Shown: positions 7,774 to 25,322 of the stretch, piece after piece | Numbering within the stretch: position 1 is the stretch's first letter | Layout of the letters: each line of letters begins with the position of its first letter | From: a virus | Length of the DNA: 64,000 nt | Direction: 5' to 3' (one strand) | IMG/VR virus record: IMGVR_UViG_3300005436_000012 | Notes under the pieces: model-generated | Told to the model about the DNA's origin: nothing | Databases searched by the model: none | What the model saw: the letters and a program-made list of their open reading frames with translations, nothing else | Program-made: the position numbers and the translations under genes

Positions 7774-8937
7774 GTGAAAATCGATATAGCCGTCGAGACG
7801 GAAATCTCGCAATCCACGCGGGCGAAACAGCTGTCGGCCATGTTCGATGTGCCGGCATCCAAGAAATGCTCGCTGCGCTGGTCAGGCGATCTGCCGATCG
7901 AGGATTTCAACTGGAATGTTGGCTTGATCGTGGGGCCATCCGGATCCGGCAAATCGACCATCGCACGGAATCTGTTCGGTGAAAACTTCGATGTGCCGTT
8001 TGAATGGACGGGCAAGAGCGTCATCGATGATTTCTCGGCCCTGCATTCCATGCAGGAGATTTCAGAAGTCTGTCAGGCGGTCGGCTTCAACACCATTCCG
8101 GCGTGGCTTAGGCCCTACAAAATCCTATCGAACGGCGAGCGTTTCCGCGTCGACTTGGCGCGGCGGCTGCTGGAGCTTCCCAATCCGATCGTCGTGGATG
8201 AATTCACGAGCGTGGTCGACCGCCAGGTGGCTCAGATCGGCGCGCACGCGGTCCAGAAATTCGCGCGGCGGCTCGATCGCCAGTTCGTCGCGGTCTCCTG
8301 CCACATGGATATCCTCGATTGGCTGCAGCCAGATTGGATCTTTCAGCCGGCGACGATGCACTTTGCCCGGAGGTCGCTTCAGCGACGCCCAACGCTCGAC
8401 GTCACGATCAGCCGGGTTCCTTACGCCGCTTGGAAACTGTTCGCTCCGTTTCACTATCTGACGGGGAATTTGCATCGCGCAGCGACGTGTTTTTGCCTGT
8501 TCATGGGCAATCGCCCGGCGTCTTTCGGGGCCATGCTGCATCGGCCTCATCCCAGGGTCCGGGACATCATGGGGCTTTCGCGATTGGTCACGCTGCCCGA
8601 TTGGCAAGGGCTGGGGCTAGCCATGATCCTTGCAGACAAACTGGGCGCGGCTTATAAGGCCATCGGGAAACGCATGCACACCTACCCGGCGCATCCAGCA
8701 TTGATTCGCAGCTTCGCAAAATCTGAAAACTGGCATCTGGAAAAAGCCGCCGGCACGTTCGCGCCCTCGACCGGCAACCGTCGACGCCTCGCATTGGGGC
8801 AGAAACTAGTGTCCTCGCGTGGCACTCAAAAGGCCATCGCGGGCGCTGCCGACATGGGCGGGCGTCCTTGTGCGGTGTATGAATACTGCGGCGAGCGAAT
8901 GGAACCGAAACAGGCGGGTCTGATGTTGGGCTTATGA
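7774..8937 (+). CDS. ABC-type ATPase fused to a C-terminal GNAT-like domain
   Basis: Walker A GPSGSGKST, signature-like LSNGERFRVDLARRL, Walker B IVVDEFTSVVD; C-terminal DWQGLGLAMIL resembles a GNAT Q/RxxGxG/A motif. Confidence 0.5.
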   Translation: MKIDIAVETEISQSTRAKQLSAMFDVPASKKCSLRWSGDLPIEDFNWNVGLIVGPSGSGKSTIARNLFGENFDVPFEWTGKSVIDDFSALHSMQEISEVCQAVGFNTIPAWLRPYKILSNGERFRVDLARRLLELPNPIVVDEFTSVVDRQVAQIGAHAVQKFARRLDRQFVAVSCHMDILDWLQPDWIFQPATMHFARRSLQRRPTLDVTISRVPYAAWKLFAPFHYLTGNLHRAATCFCLFMGNRPASFGAMLHRPHPRVRDIMGLSRLVTLPDWQGLGLAMILADKLGAAYKAIGKRMHTYPAHPALIRSFAKSENWHLEKAAGTFAPSTGNRRRLALGQKLVSSRGTQKAIAGAADMGGRPCAVYEYCGERMEPKQAGLMLGL

Positions 8938-15858: not shown

Positions 15859-16626
15859 TCACGCCGCCTTTCTGGCAGCGAGTGACGCCTTGAGCGCGGC
15901 CATGATATCGACCGCCGCGGCTTGCGGCTTCTGGGCTTCGGGTTTGGGCGGCGCTGCGCCGGATTCCTTGGATGCGATCAAGGCCAGAATCTTTTCGCGA
16001 TAGCCATCCGAGAATTTCGAGGCATCGAACGTCCCCGAATAGGCCGCAATCAGACTGGAAGCCAATTCCGATTCCGCCTCGCCGATCTGGCCCAGGTCGG
16101 TGCGGTACTCTTCCGTCGCGCGGGCTTCGTGCGCGTAGAAAAGCGTGTGCGCCACGATGCCCGATTTCCCGGCGCGGATCGCCAGGACGTGTTCGCGGCT
16201 GGACATGGTGATTTTGGCGATCGCCACCGCGCCCGAACGCTTCAGCCCGTCATAAAGCAGGGCGTAAGCCTTCGAGCCGCCCTCGTCGGGCGCGATCCAG
16301 TATGCGCTTTCATAGTTGACCGGATCGACCTGAGCGATCGGAACGAATTCCGTAATCTCGGCCACGTGCGCAGACGACGGTGCCAGGGCCTTGATTTCTT
16401 CCGGCGTCACGATCACCCAGCCTTTGCCGGTCTTGTAGCCCTTCACCACGTCGGCGGGAGCGATATCGGAGCCGTCCGATTTGACGTAGGACTTCCGTCC
16501 CACCGGTTCGAGATCCGATTTCCGGAGTTCATTGAAGCTGACCGATTCACTGCGGGCGGCACATGCTAATTTCACGGGCACGCTCACGAGTCCAAATGCG
16601 ATGTGGCCTTTCCAAACGCTTGCCAT
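15859..16626 (-). CDS. ku: Ku (non-homologous end-joining DNA-end-binding protein)
   Basis: MASVWKGHIAFGLVSVPVKL is the canonical Ku N-terminus; Ku-core-like length (256 aa). Confidence 0.8.
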   Translation of the reverse strand: MASVWKGHIAFGLVSVPVKLACAARSESVSFNELRKSDLEPVGRKSYVKSDGSDIAPADVVKGYKTGKGWVIVTPEEIKALAPSSAHVAEITEFVPIAQVDPVNYESAYWIAPDEGGSKAYALLYDGLKRSGAVAIAKITMSSREHVLAIRAGKSGIVAHTLFYAHEARATEEYRTDLGQIGEAESELASSLIAAYSGTFDASKFSDGYREKILALIASKESGAAPPKPEAQKPQAAAVDIMAALKASLAARKAA

Positions 16627-16705
16627 TTTATTTGCTCTTTTCTCCCTCTGCATTGATTCGGGCTGGGGACCGGCTGGTTTGAAAAACCCAGGCTGCATTA
16701 CGAGC

Positions 16706-16897: not shown

Positions 16898-17323
16898 CTA
16901 GGCGGGTGGTTTGGTGTTCGTCTCGCTGAGCACTTGCGCAATGCGCACGTAATCTTCGGTTGACACACCGAGGCGCGGCTCGGTTTTGACGGCGTTGAAA
17001 GTTCGCTCAAACGCCAGCCATCGGCAATCGGCCAGCGCCACGATGAGCGGATCTTCCAGCGCCGTCACGCGCGCGTTCCAGGCATCGATCAGACCGCTGC
17101 CGCACGCGCCCGCGATGTAGGCGGGCTCGACGACATTGTTAACGTAGTCGCGCAGGATCGCGCGTCGCGGTTTGCCGGTGATGATACGCTGCATCATTCC
17201 GGCCAGTCCTCCGAGCTGCGCAGCGAGCGCGATCGAGCGGGCTTTGTCTCGGGCGGGCAGTTGTTCCCATTCCCAATCGAGCGAAATGAGCAGACAAGCA
17301 GCCGGACGTTCTTTCAGTTTCAT
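16898..17323 (-). CDS. hypothetical protein
   Basis: Internal Met (MKLKERP) with an AGGAGA RBS; ATGA overlap with the ligase stop. Confidence 0.4.
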   Translation of the reverse strand: MKLKERPAACLLISLDWEWEQLPARDKARSIALAAQLGGLAGMMQRIITGKPRRAILRDYVNNVVEPAYIAGACGSGLIDAWNARVTALEDPLIVALADCRWLAFERTFNAVKTEPRLGVSTEDYVRIAQVLSETNTKPPA

Positions 17324-18369
17324 TTGGCTTCTCCTTTGAATTTCAGTTGATCGATGGTGCACTCTGACGGTTCGATGTCTTCCCGCACGGCGAGAAAAAC
17401 GGACTGGCTGAGCGACCCGGATCGATGCGCGTAAAGATAACGCACTTCGACCACGGCCCCCACGGGCGGCGCGGTCTTGTTGGGCGGGATCGTGCAACGT
17501 CCCAGCTCGGTGCCGTCAAAAAGCTTCATGTTGAAACTGGATTGCACGTTGTGAGCCGCCACGATGACCGAAGCCGTCGCGACGAATTTGTATTTGAGAG
17601 CCGGTCCGCCTGAATTGGGCCGTCCCGGTGTGTAGGGCGCAATGGCGTATTTCAGCACCACGCCTTCCCTGCCCTCGGATTTGCAGCGGGCGAACAGCGC
17701 GAGTTTGGAATCCGGATCGGTCGCCGTTTCCACCACGCGGATGCCGGATTGCGAGGATCCGAAAAGCGAATGCAGCAGCCCCAGGCGATCGCTGTAACGG
17801 GACGCGCGCATGTCGGCGAGTCCGGCCAGCAGATCGAACGCCCAGATGATGTCGCCGATAATTTCGCCGTCAATGATGAAGGCCTCATACGGGCATTCGA
17901 GAGCGGCTTTGACGATAGTGCCGGGCAGCGTGTTGTTTACCCTGCCCGTCCGCGAATAGCTGGTTAGTCGGCCATCGCGCTTTTCTAAGATGATCCGGTT
18001 GCCGTCGAATTTCTCCTGGAAATAAATATCGGGATCGGGCGCGAGTGAAAGCAATTCCGCGTCCGTGATTTCGTTCAACAGCATGGGCTTCGGAACCAGC
18101 CTCGGACCGCATGGCTCGGGCTTGGCATCGAAGCCGACCGTTTCGAGCGGCGTCGCGTCTTCGCCGGGCGTATAGCCCTTGGCGAGTTTCTCGTTCAGCT
18201 TCGACTGATAAAGCGCGTTCGCGGCCGTCTCCGATGCGGCAGCCACGGTTTTGGTTTGCATCGTTCCTCCGCGCGGCCCCCAGGCGAATTGCACGGTGCC
18301 GTTATCGACGGAGGCGGTATAGACTTTGTCCGACCTCGAATCTTTGTAGTACAGGGTTTGGGTTTTCAT
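17320..18369 (-). CDS. ATP-dependent DNA ligase with N-terminal WGR-like module
   Basis: Motif I KFDGNR, III FIIDGEII, IV WAFDLL, V EGVVLK; N-terminal FAWGPRGG (WGR-like). Confidence 0.8.
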   Translation of the reverse strand: MKTQTLYYKDSRSDKVYTASVDNGTVQFAWGPRGGTMQTKTVAAASETAANALYQSKLNEKLAKGYTPGEDATPLETVGFDAKPEPCGPRLVPKPMLLNEITDAELLSLAPDPDIYFQEKFDGNRIILEKRDGRLTSYSRTGRVNNTLPGTIVKAALECPYEAFIIDGEIIGDIIWAFDLLAGLADMRASRYSDRLGLLHSLFGSSQSGIRVVETATDPDSKLALFARCKSEGREGVVLKYAIAPYTPGRPNSGGPALKYKFVATASVIVAAHNVQSSFNMKLFDGTELGRCTIPPNKTAPPVGAVVEVRYLYAHRSGSLSQSVFLAVREDIEPSECTIDQLKFKGEAK

Positions 18370-19156: not shown

Positions 19157-19359
19157 ACAAAACTCCTTCGCAGCCCAAGCAGCAGGCTGCGCACTTCATC
19201 GAGCGCCGTGATCTGGCCGAGCGTCCATTGAGCCATCTCCCGCTCCTGCGGGTTGGTAATTCGCTGCAATTCGTGAGCCAGGGACCCGGCGCGGAGCGCC
19301 AGTAGCTTTCCTTCGACTAGAGCGAGCAATTCTTTTCGAGTGACCGGTTTGCTTTTCAT
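19153..19359 (-). CDS. hypothetical protein
   Basis: 68-aa ORF. Confidence 0.3.
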   Translation of the reverse strand: MKSKPVTRKELLALVEGKLLALRAGSLAHELQRITNPQEREMAQWTLGQITALDEVRSLLLGLRRSFV

Positions 19360-20090
19360 AGCGATCCTTTCATGTGGTTGTGTTCGAGAATTTCAAAGGC
19401 GGCTTGGACGCGGCGAAATGCCGCTGCGTCGCCGCCCAAATCGGGATGATGTTGACGGGCCAGAGCGCGATAGGCGCGCTTGATTTCTTCCCACGTGGCG
19501 CTGATTAGCACGCCCAGGATGTCGTGCGGGGAATCGTCTTTCAAGTGGGCGCGCGCGGCGTCGATGCCCATGCGCCAGTTGAATGCGGCCTGCCATTGCG
19601 CGGTGGATCCGCGCGGGCCGTCGTGGGTCTTGTAACCGGACATGAAATCGCGTTTCATGGTCGAGCCTTTCTGTCGGGGTGATTTGGCTGTGGGTTTGGG
19701 CGTGAAGCGCGCTAGAATCAGTCCGGTGATTTCGGAATCGAATTCGTAATCGAAAAACCCGAGCCGCCCGGTGAGTTCAATGAAATCGAGCGGCTGGGCT
19801 TCAGCCAGTACGAATCCGTACTCGCCTTTGAACCAGACGCTCGGATGAGCGCTGACGCAGTCGGTCAGGATCACGCGGCCCACGATGCCGCCGCGCGCAA
19901 AATGATTGGGCAGCAAGATGCCGCGCTGCCCGCAGAGAATCCGGATCGATTCCATTTCCGGATCGAGCCGTTTGCCGGCGTGGATCGCGACCGGTCCCCG
20001 GTGATTGGTCGACCAATCGCGATTCTCGATATCCTTGTGGCCGTTAGCAATGAGCCAGGCCCACGGTTGACGAACAGACAACACTTTCAT
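19356..20090 (-). CDS. ASCH domain + C-terminal J-domain (DnaJ-like) fusion
   Basis: MKVLSVRQPWAWLIANGHKDIENR (ASCH); DILGVLISATWEEIKRAYRALARQHHPDLGGD (J-domain with HPD); start at the internal Met. Confidence 0.55.
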   Translation of the reverse strand: MKVLSVRQPWAWLIANGHKDIENRDWSTNHRGPVAIHAGKRLDPEMESIRILCGQRGILLPNHFARGGIVGRVILTDCVSAHPSVWFKGEYGFVLAEAQPLDFIELTGRLGFFDYEFDSEITGLILARFTPKPTAKSPRQKGSTMKRDFMSGYKTHDGPRGSTAQWQAAFNWRMGIDAARAHLKDDSPHDILGVLISATWEEIKRAYRALARQHHPDLGGDAAAFRRVQAAFEILEHNHMKGSL

Positions 20091-20384: not shown

Positions 20385-20439
20385 ACACGGCGCAGAAAAC
20401 GCGCTGTGCAATGATTTGAAAGGCGGGCTTTGCAGCCCG

Positions 20440-21807
20440 CTAGATTAAACGGATCACCTGTCCGAACGGCGGCATGTGATCGATCCAGGCGGGCGTGACC
20501 CATAGCACTGGGTAGTCGGGCTCGACCGGCGTATCAGACGATTCCAGATCCGTCAGATACACGGCGACGCGCGGGTGAATGTCGCGCTCCTCGACCCAAT
20601 CGAACACGGGTTGCAGGCGCGTTCCGCCGCCGCCCATGAATTCGAGCTTCACGTCATCGTCGGGCGTGAATTCGGCGGTGCCCTGGACGCGCGCGTCACA
20701 GTAGACCGCGTGCAGGCGTTCGGGCTTGGCTTCCTGGATGATCGAGGTCAGTTCAGCGGCGAATTCGTCCAGCATCTCTTGCGAGACCGATGCGGACGTG
20801 TCGATGCCGGCGACGATCTCGCCGACCGTGTCGTGGATGGTACCGGGCAGATAGATCCCGCTCGAAATGAAACGGCGGTTGGGTGCGGTCCAGGAATAAT
20901 CGCTGGGCGCCGACTGCACGATGAATTCGCGCAGCACGGATTTCCAATCGACGATCGGTTCCCGTGAGCGTTTCAGTTCGCGCTGCAGGCCTCCGGGCAG
21001 TTCGCCCGAAGCGCGCGCGACGGCCGCTGCCTGTTCGGCGGCGATCGCCCAGTCTTCTTGCGTCATGGCTTCGTCGGCCTCCGGTTCCCCGGCCTCGACC
21101 CCGTCCACGAATTCGCCGGTCGGACATCCGGGCATCGAACCACCTGGGGTTGAACCACCGGGCGTGGATCCGACTGTCTGACTCGCGCCGTCGTTGGCAT
21201 CGGGCGTCGAATCGTCAGTGGGATCATCCCCGCCGTTGCCGTCGGCTGTAGCGTCGCCGTCTTCCTCCTCTGATGTCGATCCATCATCGGAATCCTCGGA
21301 CGCGTCTGAGCCGTCCTCTTGATCGTCTTCGTCTTCGTCGCCGTCTTCGTCCTCTTCGGGCTCCGGCTCAGGTTCGGGTTGCTGCATGGGCGGCTGTTCG
21401 GCCGCTTTGCGTTTGGCATAAATCTGCTCGGCGTACATGCCCTTGAATTCGGGGTCATTCAAAACGCCCGGCGGCAGTTCGAATCCGAATTCAACCAGCA
21501 CCGGATTGATGGCGTGGTCGCAGGCGATGTTCCACTCCATCGGATCGCGCGCGCCACGGCGGTAGGGATGCAGCAGAGCGCAGTGCCAAACCTCGTGGGC
21601 GATGACGCCCAGCAATTGACGTTCGGGCAGGCTGCGGGCGAATTCGGGATTGAATTTCAAAACTGTCCCGTTGGTCTGCATGGTTTCAATCGATGGATCC
21701 GGCATCAGCTTCAGCCGCATGGCCAGCGATCCGAAGAAGGGCTGTTCGAGCAGGAGGCGCGTGCGGGCACGCGCCATCATGAGTTCGTCTTGATTCATGT
21801 TTGTCAT
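20440..21807 (-). CDS. VWA-domain protein with HExxH metallopeptidase-like N-terminal region and acidic linker
   Basis: HEVWH zinc motif; long Asp/Glu-rich low-complexity linker; the DUF2201-type VWA assignment for the C-terminal half rests on overall layout and MoxR partnership, not a spelled-out motif. Confidence 0.55.
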   Translation of the reverse strand: MTNMNQDELMMARARTRLLLEQPFFGSLAMRLKLMPDPSIETMQTNGTVLKFNPEFARSLPERQLLGVIAHEVWHCALLHPYRRGARDPMEWNIACDHAINPVLVEFGFELPPGVLNDPEFKGMYAEQIYAKRKAAEQPPMQQPEPEPEPEEDEDGDEDEDDQEDGSDASEDSDDGSTSEEEDGDATADGNGGDDPTDDSTPDANDGASQTVGSTPGGSTPGGSMPGCPTGEFVDGVEAGEPEADEAMTQEDWAIAAEQAAAVARASGELPGGLQRELKRSREPIVDWKSVLREFIVQSAPSDYSWTAPNRRFISSGIYLPGTIHDTVGEIVAGIDTSASVSQEMLDEFAAELTSIIQEAKPERLHAVYCDARVQGTAEFTPDDDVKLEFMGGGGTRLQPVFDWVEERDIHPRVAVYLTDLESSDTPVEPDYPVLWVTPAWIDHMPPFGQVIRLI

Positions 21808-22682
21808 TGCAGATACCCCGACATTTTGCTGAGGATCTCGTCGGCGCGGCGCGCGGTGTCTTCCCGCACGATGGCTGAGTCTCGGAGCTCCTCGGGTGAA
21901 TGGGCGGTCAGTTCGCGGCGGATCCGCTTACAGAACTGATCGATGGCAGGATCTTCGGTGATGTTGAGCAGTGGCACGATGTCGAGCAGGTCGATGATGT
22001 TAGACACCAGCGAATCGCGAAAGGCGCTTTGGACGGGCGTGTCTTCGGTTGCGTCGGTGTAGGCGTGCAGGCGTTCCGACATTTTGCCGACCACGGATGC
22101 AAGGCGCGTCCAGATATCTTTCACCGCGAATTCGATGGTGGACTGGACGTTCGATTCAATCTGCGATTTGATGCGCGCGGTTTCTGCGTCGCCCAGGTCG
22201 ACGCGAAAATCAACCGCGTCCGGAATCGGATCGACCGACATGCAAAAAGCGAATTTGGATTCGATCTTGGATGGGCTCGGATATTCTTCCGGCTTGAAAA
22301 GCCCGTTCAGCAGACGCCGGGCATCCTCGACGTATTGAGCATAGTTGGGTTGGAACACGTTGCGGAATTCATTCCAGAAGGCGGTCTGGTGAGCCTTCAT
22401 GGTTTGGTTATATTTGAAGTACATGGGCGACGAAAGAATCCGTTTTCCTACGTCGGACCAAGGCAGCGTTAGTGTGTAGTGATCGTCTCGGGCGGCGCCG
22501 GCAATCTTTTGCAGGGAGGCCAGCGCTTCCCGGGCGAGCAAGCTCTTTCGATATTTGCCCATGGTCGGATCGGACGAATGGGTGCGGGCCACTTCGTCTG
22601 AAATCTTCTTGTCGGACTTGTAGCCACGCCATTGGCTGATGTTGAGCGACACCAGCATGGCTGATTCATTGATTCGATGCAT
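21804..22682 (-). CDS. hypothetical protein between the MoxR and VWA genes
   Basis: 292-aa ORF, translationally coupled to both neighbours. Confidence 0.4.
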   Translation of the reverse strand: MHRINESAMLVSLNISQWRGYKSDKKISDEVARTHSSDPTMGKYRKSLLAREALASLQKIAGAARDDHYTLTLPWSDVGKRILSSPMYFKYNQTMKAHQTAFWNEFRNVFQPNYAQYVEDARRLLNGLFKPEEYPSPSKIESKFAFCMSVDPIPDAVDFRVDLGDAETARIKSQIESNVQSTIEFAVKDIWTRLASVVGKMSERLHAYTDATEDTPVQSAFRDSLVSNIIDLLDIVPLLNITEDPAIDQFCKRIRRELTAHSPEELRDSAIVREDTARRADEILSKMSGYLQ

Positions 22683-22722
22683 TGTGATTTCTCCTTGGAT
22701 TGAATTCGTTTCGGATTGGACG

Positions 22723-23802
22723 TCAGAACGTAACGTCGGAATGTTGAACGGCCCACTTGGTGAATTCGGGCGTGGACTGGAGTGAAGCGTCGCGCGTGAC
22801 GGCGTCGCGAATGGCGTAGACGTTGTACTCGACCGGTAGCCGTTCGAGATACGTCACGATGCGCGGGAAGTTTTTGTCGGACGCCCGGCGCGCTAACGCA
22901 GCCGAGATGGCATACAATACGTTGGCCTCCGTTGGCACCATCGCCTTTTTGGGATCGAGCAGGATGGCGTCGATGTTGGGCAGGCTGCGGAACAGTCTCA
23001 GGAACGCCGAATATTCGACCGCCGCGGTTTCGCCGACCGCGCCAGAGAACAGAGCGTGTTCCACTTTCGGCGCGGGGCTTTGAGCGGTGATCTGGCTCAC
23101 GAATTCCCAGGCTCGAGGATTGGGCGATACGCGCTGCTTGCGGTCGTATTGGTGAAGCAGTTCGGGGCGGAAGCGCAGGAAGGCGATCGTGACCGGCTCC
23201 CAATTGCGCTGCACGGCGAACTTACAGACGTCATCCAGATTCGTGCCCGCATCCAGATGAATGAAGCGCGCGAGCAATGCGCTGGACATTTTGGCGGCGC
23301 CGATATCGTTATCGTTGACGGCCGCTGCGGGGATCCACGTGGCGGGCATTTTGTACTCGCCAAGTTCGCCCGATAGCACGAGCGAGAAGCAGCCGTTGCG
23401 GACCATCTCCGTCCCGCGATTGATTTCGTCCAGGAAGAAAATGCCACCGCGCGGGTCGCGCGGCAGGAATTCAGGCTGCGCCCAATGCGCGCGGCCGCCG
23501 CCGTTGACTACCGGCAAGCCTCTGAGATCGACCGCGTCGAGCAGCGCGGCGCGAACGTCGCGAAACCAGGGACGGTCGGTAGTCGGATTGCCGGCGGCAT
23601 CGTGCAAATCGCCCGAGGCGTCGACGGAGCAACCGTAGCTTTCGGCGTACATCTGATCGGCGACGGATCGGGTGATATCCGATTTGCCGATTCCAGGGTC
23701 GCCGTGGATCATCGGCGCGCGGTGCGCGGCGAACAGAGTCTTCAGCGCCATCCCGAGTTCGGACGGCTTCAAGGCGTCATTGAGTTGGATCGTCGGTGTC
23801 AT
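22723..23802 (-). CDS. MoxR-family AAA+ ATPase
   Basis: Walker A IHGDPGIGKS, Walker B FFLDEINR; start at the internal Met (MTPTIQL) with an AGGAGA RBS. Confidence 0.7.
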   Translation of the reverse strand: MTPTIQLNDALKPSELGMALKTLFAAHRAPMIHGDPGIGKSDITRSVADQMYAESYGCSVDASGDLHDAAGNPTTDRPWFRDVRAALLDAVDLRGLPVVNGGGRAHWAQPEFLPRDPRGGIFFLDEINRGTEMVRNGCFSLVLSGELGEYKMPATWIPAAAVNDNDIGAAKMSSALLARFIHLDAGTNLDDVCKFAVQRNWEPVTIAFLRFRPELLHQYDRKQRVSPNPRAWEFVSQITAQSPAPKVEHALFSGAVGETAAVEYSAFLRLFRSLPNIDAILLDPKKAMVPTEANVLYAISAALARRASDKNFPRIVTYLERLPVEYNVYAIRDAVTRDASLQSTPEFTKWAVQHSDVTF

Positions 23803-23915
23803 TGCTTGTTCTCCTTTTTGGAAATCTGAATTGTTTTGGGTTTGCCGATCGTGCAGAAAACGACGGTGCAGGCGATCAGCAGGAAACTGGCGAGCAGGGC
23901 GAAGTAGGGAATCAT
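23799..23915 (-). CDS. small single-TM protein (about 39 aa)
   Basis: MIPYFALLASFLLIACTVVFCTIG; weak RBS. Confidence 0.2.
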   Translation of the reverse strand: MIPYFALLASFLLIACTVVFCTIGKPKTIQISKKENKQ

Positions 23916-24255
23916 GTGAGGTTTCTCGGTTTGATTTCGGTGGATTGGTTTGGACGTCTCGCCCGGTCGGGCTAAACTGCGCGTCCTGGTCAGTTGCATA
24001 CTTGTTGGCTCGTTTCATCTGTCATCCGCTTCGCTGCATCGGGCCTCTACTTTCGCGTTGGGGATTCTAGCGGCGTCATCGCGACGCGGCGCTCCTACAC
24101 TCGGCGATTGTTCGAGGCGGCTTGCTGTCTAACGCCCTGCGGCTCAGAAACTTGCCACTTCGTTATTCGTACCGTCGCGGTTCAAACTGCGAATCGTTTC
24201 GGTTTGATTGTCAAAGAACTGCGTTTCGTATCTCTCAAATACGTAACATCTATAG

Positions 24256-24284
24256 TATGACACTGACAGCGTAGTCAGTGCCAA
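24256..24284 (-). promoter_or_regulatory. promoter/operator copy D (weaker: -35 TTGGCA, 19-nt spacer, -10 CATACT)
   Basis: Reverse complement TTGGCA-CTGACTACGCTGTCAGTGT-CATACT; half-sites CTGAC-N6-GTCAG at 24263-24278. Confidence 0.3.
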
Positions 24285-24406
24285 CACGCAAGGAACTATA
24301 TTGCGCGCGGTTTCAAGGACTTAGCCATGCGCGATTCGCGCTGTAGCGCGTTTTCATGCGTTTACGGCGATACGACCGCGCTGTGGCGCGCGCTGCACAG
24401 CGATAA

Positions 24407-24437
24407 TTGACAGTCACTGCGCACTGGATGTTATACT
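24407..24437 (+). promoter_or_regulatory. rightward (late) promoter: -35 TTGACA, 19-nt spacer, extended -10 TGtTATACT
   Basis: TTGACAGTCACTGCGCACTGGATGTTATACT; spacer holds an operator-like GTCACTGCGCA half-site; ATG at 24450 about 12 nt from the -10. Confidence 0.4.
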
Positions 24438-24449
24438 CGGGGTGCCAAA

Positions 24450-24668
24450 ATGCCGCGAGGAAAAAAGCCCATCTCTCCGGAAGCATCCGATGCCGCGCGA
24501 CAATTGCAGGCGTTGAGAAAGCACCGCCGGGGCGGCGGCTCGGTCGCGCGCGTGCCGCACGTCAAAGGCCTGCCGATCGGATCGCGCAAATCGATCCGGG
24601 GCCAAGGCTACGCCTGCATGTGTCTCCGCTGTAGAATCGCTCGCGGGCATTACAAGCCCAAAAAATAA
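24450..24668 (+). CDS. small basic protein, first gene of the rightward operon
   Basis: 72 aa, Arg/Lys-rich, C-terminal CMCLRC. Confidence 0.3.
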   Translation: MPRGKKPISPEASDAARQLQALRKHRRGGGSVARVPHVKGLPIGSRKSIRGQGYACMCLRCRIARGHYKPKK

Positions 24669-24728
24669 CGGGCCGGACCGTTTCAATCCGGGAACCCAGG
24701 CCGCGCTGTCTCGCGGGTTTAGCTTGAT

Positions 24729-25322
24729 GTGTCTCCATTCCCTTTCCGTTCCGCCGCTGCCGGCGAATCCTCGCGCGCATACGCCGCCTTCACGCTGTAT
24801 CGCGACCTGGGCCCGGCGCGTTCGCAGCAATCCGCCTGGCGGGAACATCTCAAACGAGCGGGACGGGGCGAGGAAACGATTTCCTGCCCGCGCACCTGGC
24901 AGGATTGGTCCTCGAAATTCGAATGGGTAGGCCGGGCGGCCGCCTACGATCAGGAAATCGACGCGCAGAGGCTGAAAGCGCGCATCGAGAAAACCCGGGA
25001 GCTCGAGGAACGCCGCGCGCAATTTGAATTCGAAAACCAGGACAGGTTAGAGAAGCGGGTCCGCAAGGCGGAAGCGGTTCTCGACAAAGCCGATTCGGCG
25101 CCCATCACCGACGTCACCCAATCGAAGGAAGAAATAGTCAAGGGCAAAGCCACCAGCACCAAGACCAAGGTCAAGGGCATCAATTTCTCGGGCTACGCGG
25201 CGCTGATGAATAAAACCAACGAGACGGCCCGGCAGGCGATCACGGGCGTCCGCGCTGACAAAAACTCGGAATCGAAACCCGGCGCCGTCCAGGAAGTCGA
25301 CGGTCTGATCTGGACGGAATGA
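24729..25322 (+). CDS. putative terminase small subunit
   Basis: Position directly upstream of the large terminase with overlapping stop/start; coiled-coil middle region; no diagnostic motif. Confidence 0.35.
   Translation: MSPFPFRSAAAGESSRAYAAFTLYRDLGPARSQQSAWREHLKRAGRGEETISCPRTWQDWSSKFEWVGRAAAYDQEIDAQRLKARIEKTRELEERRAQFEFENQDRLEKRVRKAEAVLDKADSAPITDVTQSKEEIVKGKATSTKTKVKGINFSGYAALMNKTNETARQAITGVRADKNSESKPGAVQEVDGLIWTE

Follow-up and report, generated by a model that had tools for sequence, protein, structure and literature searches.

A MoxR-like ATPase, a DUF3150 protein and a zinc-protease/VWA fusion form a linked module on phages, conjugative plasmids and integrated elements

Background

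Several AAA+ ATPases of one clade work with a von Willebrand factor A (VWA) domain. In Midasin-Rsa4/Ytm1, NorQ-NorD, CbbQ-CbbO and RavA-ViaA, the metal ion-dependent adhesion site (MIDAS) of the VWA domain holds an acidic residue of the client while the AAA+ ring remodels it. Phages carry a pair of this general kind. MoxR paired with a metallopeptidase-vWA protein is found in group 2.2 jumbo phages, and a virion-assembly role has been proposed for it (Iyer et al. 2021, PMC7824862). Phage N4 gp24 and gp25 are described as middle transcripts (PMC4193335); both are listed with function 'unknown' (PMC2784036). There are also ternary conflict systems, which consist of MoxR, a vWA domain fused to a peptidase, and a third component (Kaur et al. 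2020, eLife 9:e52696, PMC7159879; PMC12839542). The subject of this study is a locus in the IMG/VR virus record IMGVR_UViG_3300005436_000012, of which a stretch of 64,000 nucleotides (the window) was analysed. The locus encodes a MoxR-like AAA+ ATPase, a DUF3150-like protein and a zinc-protease/VWA fusion (A, D and V where gene orders are given; Table 1).

The trio is a self-contained module of mobile elements (tailed phages, conjugative plasmids and integrated elements), in which a pair of the N4 gp24/gp25 type is joined by a DUF3150 protein. The ATPase and the zinc-protease/VWA protein are full-length homologues of gp24 and gp25; as in N4, their genes are neighbours on the same strand among DNA-metabolism genes (middle genes in N4). 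N4 differs in having no detectable DUF3150 partner. NorQ-NorD, CbbQ-CbbO, RavA-ViaA and Midasin with its MIDAS domain share the AAA+ clade, the VWA fold with a complete MIDAS and the adjacency of the genes. However, those systems remodel or mature specific host complexes and have neither a fused protease nor a DUF3150 protein, whereas the window module is carried by mobile elements. A first-pass annotation, made from the sequence alone, had singled out the triad. The trio is real, but its ATPase/VWA pair was already known in the form of the N4 proteins, and all the component families are catalogued. Literature searches (DUF3150; DUF2201; N4-like with von Willebrand; anti-defence with MoxR/VWA) found no functional study and gave a single, unrelated paper that names DUF3150; the strict three-way linkage with DUF3150, and its spread over phages, plasmids and integrated elements, were not found there and are what is new here. 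We tentatively read the trio as an ATP-driven, MIDAS-targeted machine that would remodel and cleave a host or element protein early, during establishment or replication (probability roughly 0.45).

The three genes are linked in viruses, plasmids and genomes

The search for loci used only the DUF3150-like protein, which leaves the presence of the other two genes as an independent test of linkage. A relative of this protein is encoded in 582 IMG/VR contigs. Linkage was scored in 85 non-redundant loci, whose DUF3150-like proteins are 26-80% identical to that of the window, by clustering all their open reading frames (ORFs). An ATPase gene lies on the same strand in 81 loci and a protease-VWA gene in 78. 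Complete trios, on one strand and with a median span of about 3.5 kb, are present in 75; the orders are A-D-V (36), D-A-V (37) and A-V-D (2). Of the ten incomplete loci, nine run into the end of their contig and one (L060) has a VWA fragment only. Beyond the trio, no real gene family reaches more than 16 of the 85 loci; those most often nearby are a divergently oriented terminase (14 loci), a sliding clamp (8 loci) and an SNF2 helicase (7 loci). The trio was found again in independent gene calls with precomputed Pfam labels.

The trio is also present on 62 plasmids, mostly from Burkholderiales, 29 of which are conjugative. Hosts include Simplicispira, Burkholderia and Rhodovastum, and neighbouring genes encode PRTRC, type IV secretion system (T4SS), ParB, toprim/primase-like and methyltransferase proteins; on pBMC401, the trio abuts the T4SS genes. 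Genome contigs were scanned with a 14-sequence DUF3150-like alignment, which gave six loci; the same scan with the single window protein found nothing. The trio was found in genomes or metagenome-assembled genomes labelled Kordiimonas, delta proteobacterium, Chitinophaga, Tepidisphaeraceae and Thermoanaerobaculia. The sixth locus, on a Gammaproteobacteria contig, ends before the VWA gene. Among 50,697 records of isolated phages, DUF3150 is found in three, all of 65,014 bp, and a search with the DUF3150 protein of phage MinM2 matched all three at 99% identity or more. MinM2 is the only isolated phage in which the whole trio was found. Of the isolated-phage records, 574 encode a gp25-like protein; N4-like phages and the jumbo phages G, Atu_ph07 and G17 are among them. 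The first-pass annotation had proposed a co-occurrence check, and had raised absence of co-occurrence elsewhere, or a housekeeping role in the host lineage, as grounds for abandoning the idea. Co-occurrence proved near-exceptionless across phages, plasmids and genomes; the trio is neither an artefact nor a housekeeping module of one host lineage.

This distribution bears on the proposal of Iyer et al. for the jumbo-phage pair. Extended to the trio, it would make the MoxR-VWA pair and the peptidase a chaperone which folds and processes structural proteins of virions or other large machines, with DUF3150 as co-chaperone or scaffold. It resembles the MoxR-VWA pair of tail development in Acidianus two-tailed virus. 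However, plasmids, which form no virions, carry the trio too. In phages its orientation is that of the DNA-metabolism genes and not of the structural genes, no structural gene is consistently linked to it in the 85 loci, and gp24 and gp25 of N4 are middle rather than late. Because conjugative plasmids carry the trio as well, a role purely in virion maturation, which was among those suggested in the first-pass annotation, is disfavoured. An assembly chaperone is therefore judged unlikely; were it one, the module would be ordinary.

The ATPase and the zincin-VWA protein

The ATPase has a Walker A motif, IHGDPGIGKS (core GDPGIGKS), and a Walker B motif, FFLDEINR. It matches phrog_1297 (E 5.8e-70) and N4 gp24 (BLASTP, 26% identity over 343 aa, E 4e-34). 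Against Pfam AAA_5 it scores 18.4 bits (cut-off 22); among 29 family members, AAA_5 is matched by 26 and AAA_3 by 13 at E<=0.01. A profile of these 29 members, searched against PDB, matches the AAA modules of Midasin (4e-41), NorQ (8e-10), CbbQ (4.5e-7) and RavA (6e-6); Clp/Hsp100 proteins are also matched, at about 1e-9 to 1e-7. Because the family profile points to Midasin, NorQ, CbbQ and RavA, and because most members match AAA_5, the first-pass assignment to the MoxR type is right at the level of the clade. Residues G37, K40, D125, N163, R179 and R230 are among those invariant in the family and fall at Walker A/B, sensor and arginine positions. The same unit encodes a VWA protein with a MIDAS motif, and the linkage is kept across the 85 loci.

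This VWA protein, of 455 aa, has two Pfam domains in the order DUF2201_N (E 1.1e-51, 176.5 bits, gathering threshold 23.2) and DUF2201 (E 2.1e-29, 102.6 bits, threshold 26.4). The HEVWH zinc-peptidase motif belongs to a zincin site which, in 58 homologues, reads HExxHxxxxH, with H75 and H80 invariant and H71 and E72 conserved in at least 90%. The MIDAS set DxSxS..T..D (D336, S338, S340, T396 and D420) is invariant in the same homologues. The VWA fold is confirmed, with fold matches that include the Midasin MIDAS, NorD and BchD VWA domains. Between the domains lies an acidic linker (approximately residues 138-248), with 40 Asp/Glu and no Lys/Arg in 111 residues. At about 110 aa it exceeds every other linker of the family (median 53), and it is far longer than in pairs of the N4 type. 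An AlphaFold2 model (predicted local distance difference test score, pLDDT, of 82) has two ordered domains with a disordered segment between them; pLDDT is below 50 at linker residues 158-222, which predicts disorder. The peptidase motif, the DUF2201-type VWA domain and the acidic linker, all noted in the first-pass annotation, are thus borne out.

It should be noted that proteins of the gp25 family are often labelled 'HNH endonuclease' (in many GenBank records and PHROG 1314), and once 'virion RNA polymerase'. Since Pfam gives DUF2201_N and DUF2201, and the fold is that of a VWA domain, the HNH label, for which the analysis gave no support, looks like a propagated mis-annotation.

A likeness to CobT was considered and rejected. 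PDB entry 9uka (E 0.028) and TIGR01651 (E 0.0098, 14.6 bits against a cut-off of 759) are matched only within the acidic linker; because the matches lie entirely in this low-complexity segment and far below the cut-off, they reflect composition and not homology. These matches are one reason to consider a chelatase-like activase, an analogue of CobS/CobT, BchI/BchD or NorQ/NorD which would insert a metal cofactor and so mature a metalloenzyme that the element needs for its nucleotide or DNA metabolism. The best matches of the ATPase include NorQ and CbbQ, the NorD and BchD VWA domains are among the fold matches, and an acidic linker is also present in CobT and BchD. However, chelatases have nothing that corresponds to the conserved HExxH protease domain, and neither a CobN- or BchH-like gene nor a metalloenzyme gene with consistent linkage is found in the 85 loci. 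With the CobT matches put down to composition, a chelatase-like role is very improbable.

The middle protein is a divergent DUF3150 member

The 292-aa protein encoded between the ATPase and VWA genes gave no direct match in Pfam, PHROG, NCBIfam, PADLOC or PDB-sequence searches, and no match to DUF3150 (PF11348) even at E<=10. The family is reached through its relatives. A tblastn search found a protein of the cyanophage MinM2 annotated as DUF3150 (E 2e-24), and PF11348 is matched by 36 of 65 homologues (best E 2.3e-9). The AlphaFold2 model (pLDDT 95.9) is a helical bundle without an NTPase fold; compared by Foldseek with the model of a phage DUF3150 protein, it has a template modelling score of 0.88. 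Among solved structures, its resemblances are limited to generic helical bundles. Invariant acidic residues of DUF3150 include D24, D158 and D223. The homologues thus match the Pfam model and share the predicted fold, although the window protein itself has no reportable Pfam score. By homology and predicted structure it is a divergent member of DUF3150, from a branch poorly captured by the current model, rather than the protein of unknown function of the first-pass annotation. A DUF3150-like profile matches 10,092 protein cluster representatives at E<=0.001 and 4,237 at E<=1e-30. N4 gp20 (278 aa) was tried as a hidden DUF3150 analogue and rejected: hhalign against the profile gave a probability of 1%.

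The identity of this third protein is important when the trio is compared with the ternary conflict systems, to which the first-pass annotation had drawn a link. A conflict system of that style, borne by the element and acting in superinfection exclusion or abortive infection, would rely on DUF3150 to detect the invader and set the peptidase free as a toxic effector. The three-gene architecture of MoxR, vWA-peptidase and third protein is parallel, the bpMoxR model is weakly matched by 11 of the 29 ATPase family members, and defence cargo is frequent on mobile elements. The third component of the ternary systems is VMAP or iSTAND, whereas here it is DUF3150; no VMAP (VMAP-C) or iSTAND family is found among the Pfam matches of the 65 DUF3150-like proteins. 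None of the four window proteins (the trio and a small ORF before it) matches PADLOC-DB v2 at E<=0.1. The ternary systems are chromosomal and preponderant in multicellular prokaryotes (Kaur et al. 2020), and the window module is found in phages and plasmids. Most of their caspase domains at the effector position, and nearly all of their trypsin domains, are catalytically inactive; the window peptidase is N-terminal and, judging by its conserved site, an apparently active zincin. The 574 isolated-phage records with the pair are largely of lytic N4-like phages, and the pair has a fixed middle-gene position, which fits the phage's own cycle better than accessory defence. We consider an element-borne conflict system improbable, to about the same degree as an assembly chaperone.

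A proposed remodel-and-cleave mechanism

The preferred reading, a machine that remodels and then cleaves a client protein, would work as follows. The AAA+ protein would assemble into a hexameric motor, to which the VWA domain of its protease-VWA partner docks. The intact MIDAS would grip an acidic side chain of the client, and ATP hydrolysis would remodel it. The HExxH zincin domain, tethered through the long flexible acidic linker, would then cleave the client. DUF3150 would be a third, obligatory subunit; an adaptor for specificity or a regulator is most likely, though it may be the primary client. The machine would act early and not as part of the virion, and its target would be a protein of the host or the element with a part in establishment or replication.

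This scheme is the simplest reading because solved VWA-paired relatives use a MIDAS with an AAA+ ring, and the VWA domain here is tethered to a zincin with a conserved site. DUF3150 is placed outside the core chemistry, as adaptor, regulator or dedicated client, because it is strictly linked in the trio yet absent from N4-type pairs. An early role in establishment or replication is suggested by the sharing of the trio between phages and conjugative plasmids, by its co-orientation with DNA-metabolism genes and by the middle-gene counterparts in N4. Gene identities, conserved catalytic residues, linkage and distribution are observed; we infer complex formation, the part played by DUF3150, the timing and the target.

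Several points weigh against this reading. DUF3150 has no solved structural relative, which makes its role a guess. The gp25-like protein is far more widespread in isolated phages than DUF3150 (574 records against 3), and N4 has no detectable DUF3150 (gp20 is not one), so the core chemistry of the pair cannot require DUF3150. 'Early' timing in the window element comes from position only, and a sigma-70 scan gave no promoter. Virion assembly has been proposed for the pair in print (PMC7824862), and the position of the trio beside the T4SS on pBMC401 would fit an assembly chaperone for large envelope machines.

A bolder version may be entertained, though it is doubtful. The trio could represent an unrecognised class of ATP-powered, MIDAS-targeted protease, common to phages and conjugative plasmids, which removes a conserved host protein (for example a defence, DNA-end or nucleoid-bound factor) within minutes of DNA entry. 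It would then act broadly, as a host-takeover or anti-defence machine whose target-recognition subunit is DUF3150.

If the trio does remodel and cleave host proteins, a part of N4-like and jumbo phage genomes that has long lacked an assigned role would be accounted for, and this would constitute a new type of establishment or anti-defence function. The gp24/gp25-type pair is carried by several jumbo phages among its 574 isolated-phage records, and the DUF3150 version by at least 582 viral contigs and 62 plasmids. Strict linkage, conserved catalytic sites and occurrence in both phages and conjugative plasmids make the module tractable. It will not surprise a specialist in AAA+/VWA systems, but it is abundant and directly testable.

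Organisation of the locus

The window is identical to a stretch of an ENA metagenome contig (approximately 72 kb), and known phage structural families are matched only weakly. The trio and the small ORF before it, all four on the minus strand where the first-pass annotation had placed them, head a long leftward array which diverges from a rightward terminase arm. After the trio, the array encodes a SWIM-like 84-aa ORF, ASCH+DnaJ, WGR with an ATP-dependent ligase, Ku, a methyltransferase, ParB_N and a clamp-loader-like AAA protein.

Table 1. Features of the module locus and of other genes discussed in the text.
Feature	Coordinates	Strand	Remarks
AAA+ ATPase, 359 aa	22723-23802	minus	MoxR/AAA_5 (helix-2-insert) clade; phage N4 gp24 homologue
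Divergent DUF3150-family protein, 292 aa	21804-22682	minus	Predicted long helical bundle with small beta-sheet
DUF2201_N zincin, acidic disordered linker, DUF2201 VWA/MIDAS, 455 aa	20440-21807	minus	Phage N4 gp25 homologue
Small ORF with single transmembrane segment, 38 aa	23799-23915	minus	ATGA overlap with ATPase start; lineage-specific; outside conserved module
5' leader/regulatory region of leftward unit	23916-24300	minus	DNA-level conservation with relative L004
GC-rich hairpin GCGGGC-TGCAAA-GCCCGC	20423-20440	minus	Begins at final base of VWA-gene stop codon; read from sequence
Basic ORF with CxCxxC motif, 72 aa	24450-24668	plus	First gene of rightward terminase arm
SWIM-like ORF, 84 aa	20087-20341	minus	CxC…CxH motif
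ASCH + DnaJ (J-domain) fusion	19356-20090	minus	4-nt overlap after SWIM-like ORF
WGR/ATP-dependent DNA ligase	17320-18369	minus	Leftward array
Ku homologue	15859-16698	minus	PF02735, E 3e-36; leftward array
ParB_N + HTH_ParB protein, 545 aa	12261-13898	minus	ParB_N-type
ParB-like protein or nuclease, 209 aa	7143-7772	plus	ParB_N-type; phrog_723, E 1e-36

The ATPase is best taken to start with the ATG at 23802, with AGGAG 8 nt upstream; in a relative (L004), the ATPase is 87% identical and its start is at this Met too. The DUF3150 stop codon overlaps the start of the VWA gene as ATGA. Because a 40-nt gap separates it from the ATPase stop and it has its own ribosome-binding site (AAGGAG), the DUF3150 gene is not coupled by overlap to the ATPase gene. 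The translational coupling claimed for it thus stands for the VWA gene and not for the ATPase gene; within the trio, the DUF3150-to-VWA junction is the only one with overlap coupling.

The GC-rich hairpin at the end of the VWA gene fails the T-run criterion of the terminator scan; it possibly closes the unit as a weak terminator or attenuator. After it, and before the next gene, is a promoter-like site, TTGGCA-17-TATACT (20385-20357). For both hairpin and site the evidence is at consensus level only.

The small ORF has a hydrophobic stretch of 22 residues and is called as a gene in contigs identical to the window. The tiny transmembrane protein reported before the set is real in this respect, but it is 38 aa long and not 39. 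A tblastn search of the loci set gave matches only in the identical contigs L002 and L003, and alignment with L004, the closest relative, shows the ORF as an insertion which L004 lacks. On this evidence it is lineage-specific and not part of the conserved module.

Upstream, the leader (approximately 23920-24300) shares long blocks of identical DNA with L004, for example TCTGAGCCGCAGGGCGT and AGCCCGACCGGGCGAGACGT. An Rfam match to group-II-D1D4-7 (24132-24273) is below threshold (19 bits against 34, E 0.19) and was treated as chance. The region may be a structured leader or regulatory RNA, or the Rfam match may have arisen by chance. The first-pass annotation had placed the trio downstream of an 'operator-controlled promoter D', but a simple sigma-70 scan of 23700-24800 found no promoter-like site. 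A palindrome, CGCGCTGTnGCGCG, has three copies in the divergent intergenic region (24337-24350, 24377-24390 and 24702-24715); these are candidate operator sites. The 72-aa basic ORF with the CxCxxC motif (…GYACMCLRCRIARGH…) is conserved in L004 at 8088-8306 on the minus strand, and its product may be a small regulator or DNA-binding protein.

Other genes of the element and its relatives

The Ku homologue and the WGR/ligase protein of the leftward array are, by their domain matches, a phage-borne pair of the non-homologous end joining type. The SWIM-like ORF (GCSCPAWRIHRHCKH) and the ASCH+DnaJ fusion lie downstream of the promoter-like site described above; the J-domain of the fusion suggests recruitment of host Hsp70. 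There are two separate ParB_N-type proteins in the window, and ParB-family genes also adjoin the trio on plasmids.

The closest relative was recovered as contigs of one length, 104,422 bp (L005, L006 and L007; JGI 3300011269 and 3300011271) from two soil metagenomes. The contigs have differing start points, which suggests a circular or circularly permuted genome of approximately 104 kb. An ABC-transporter-like gene is found at one edge.

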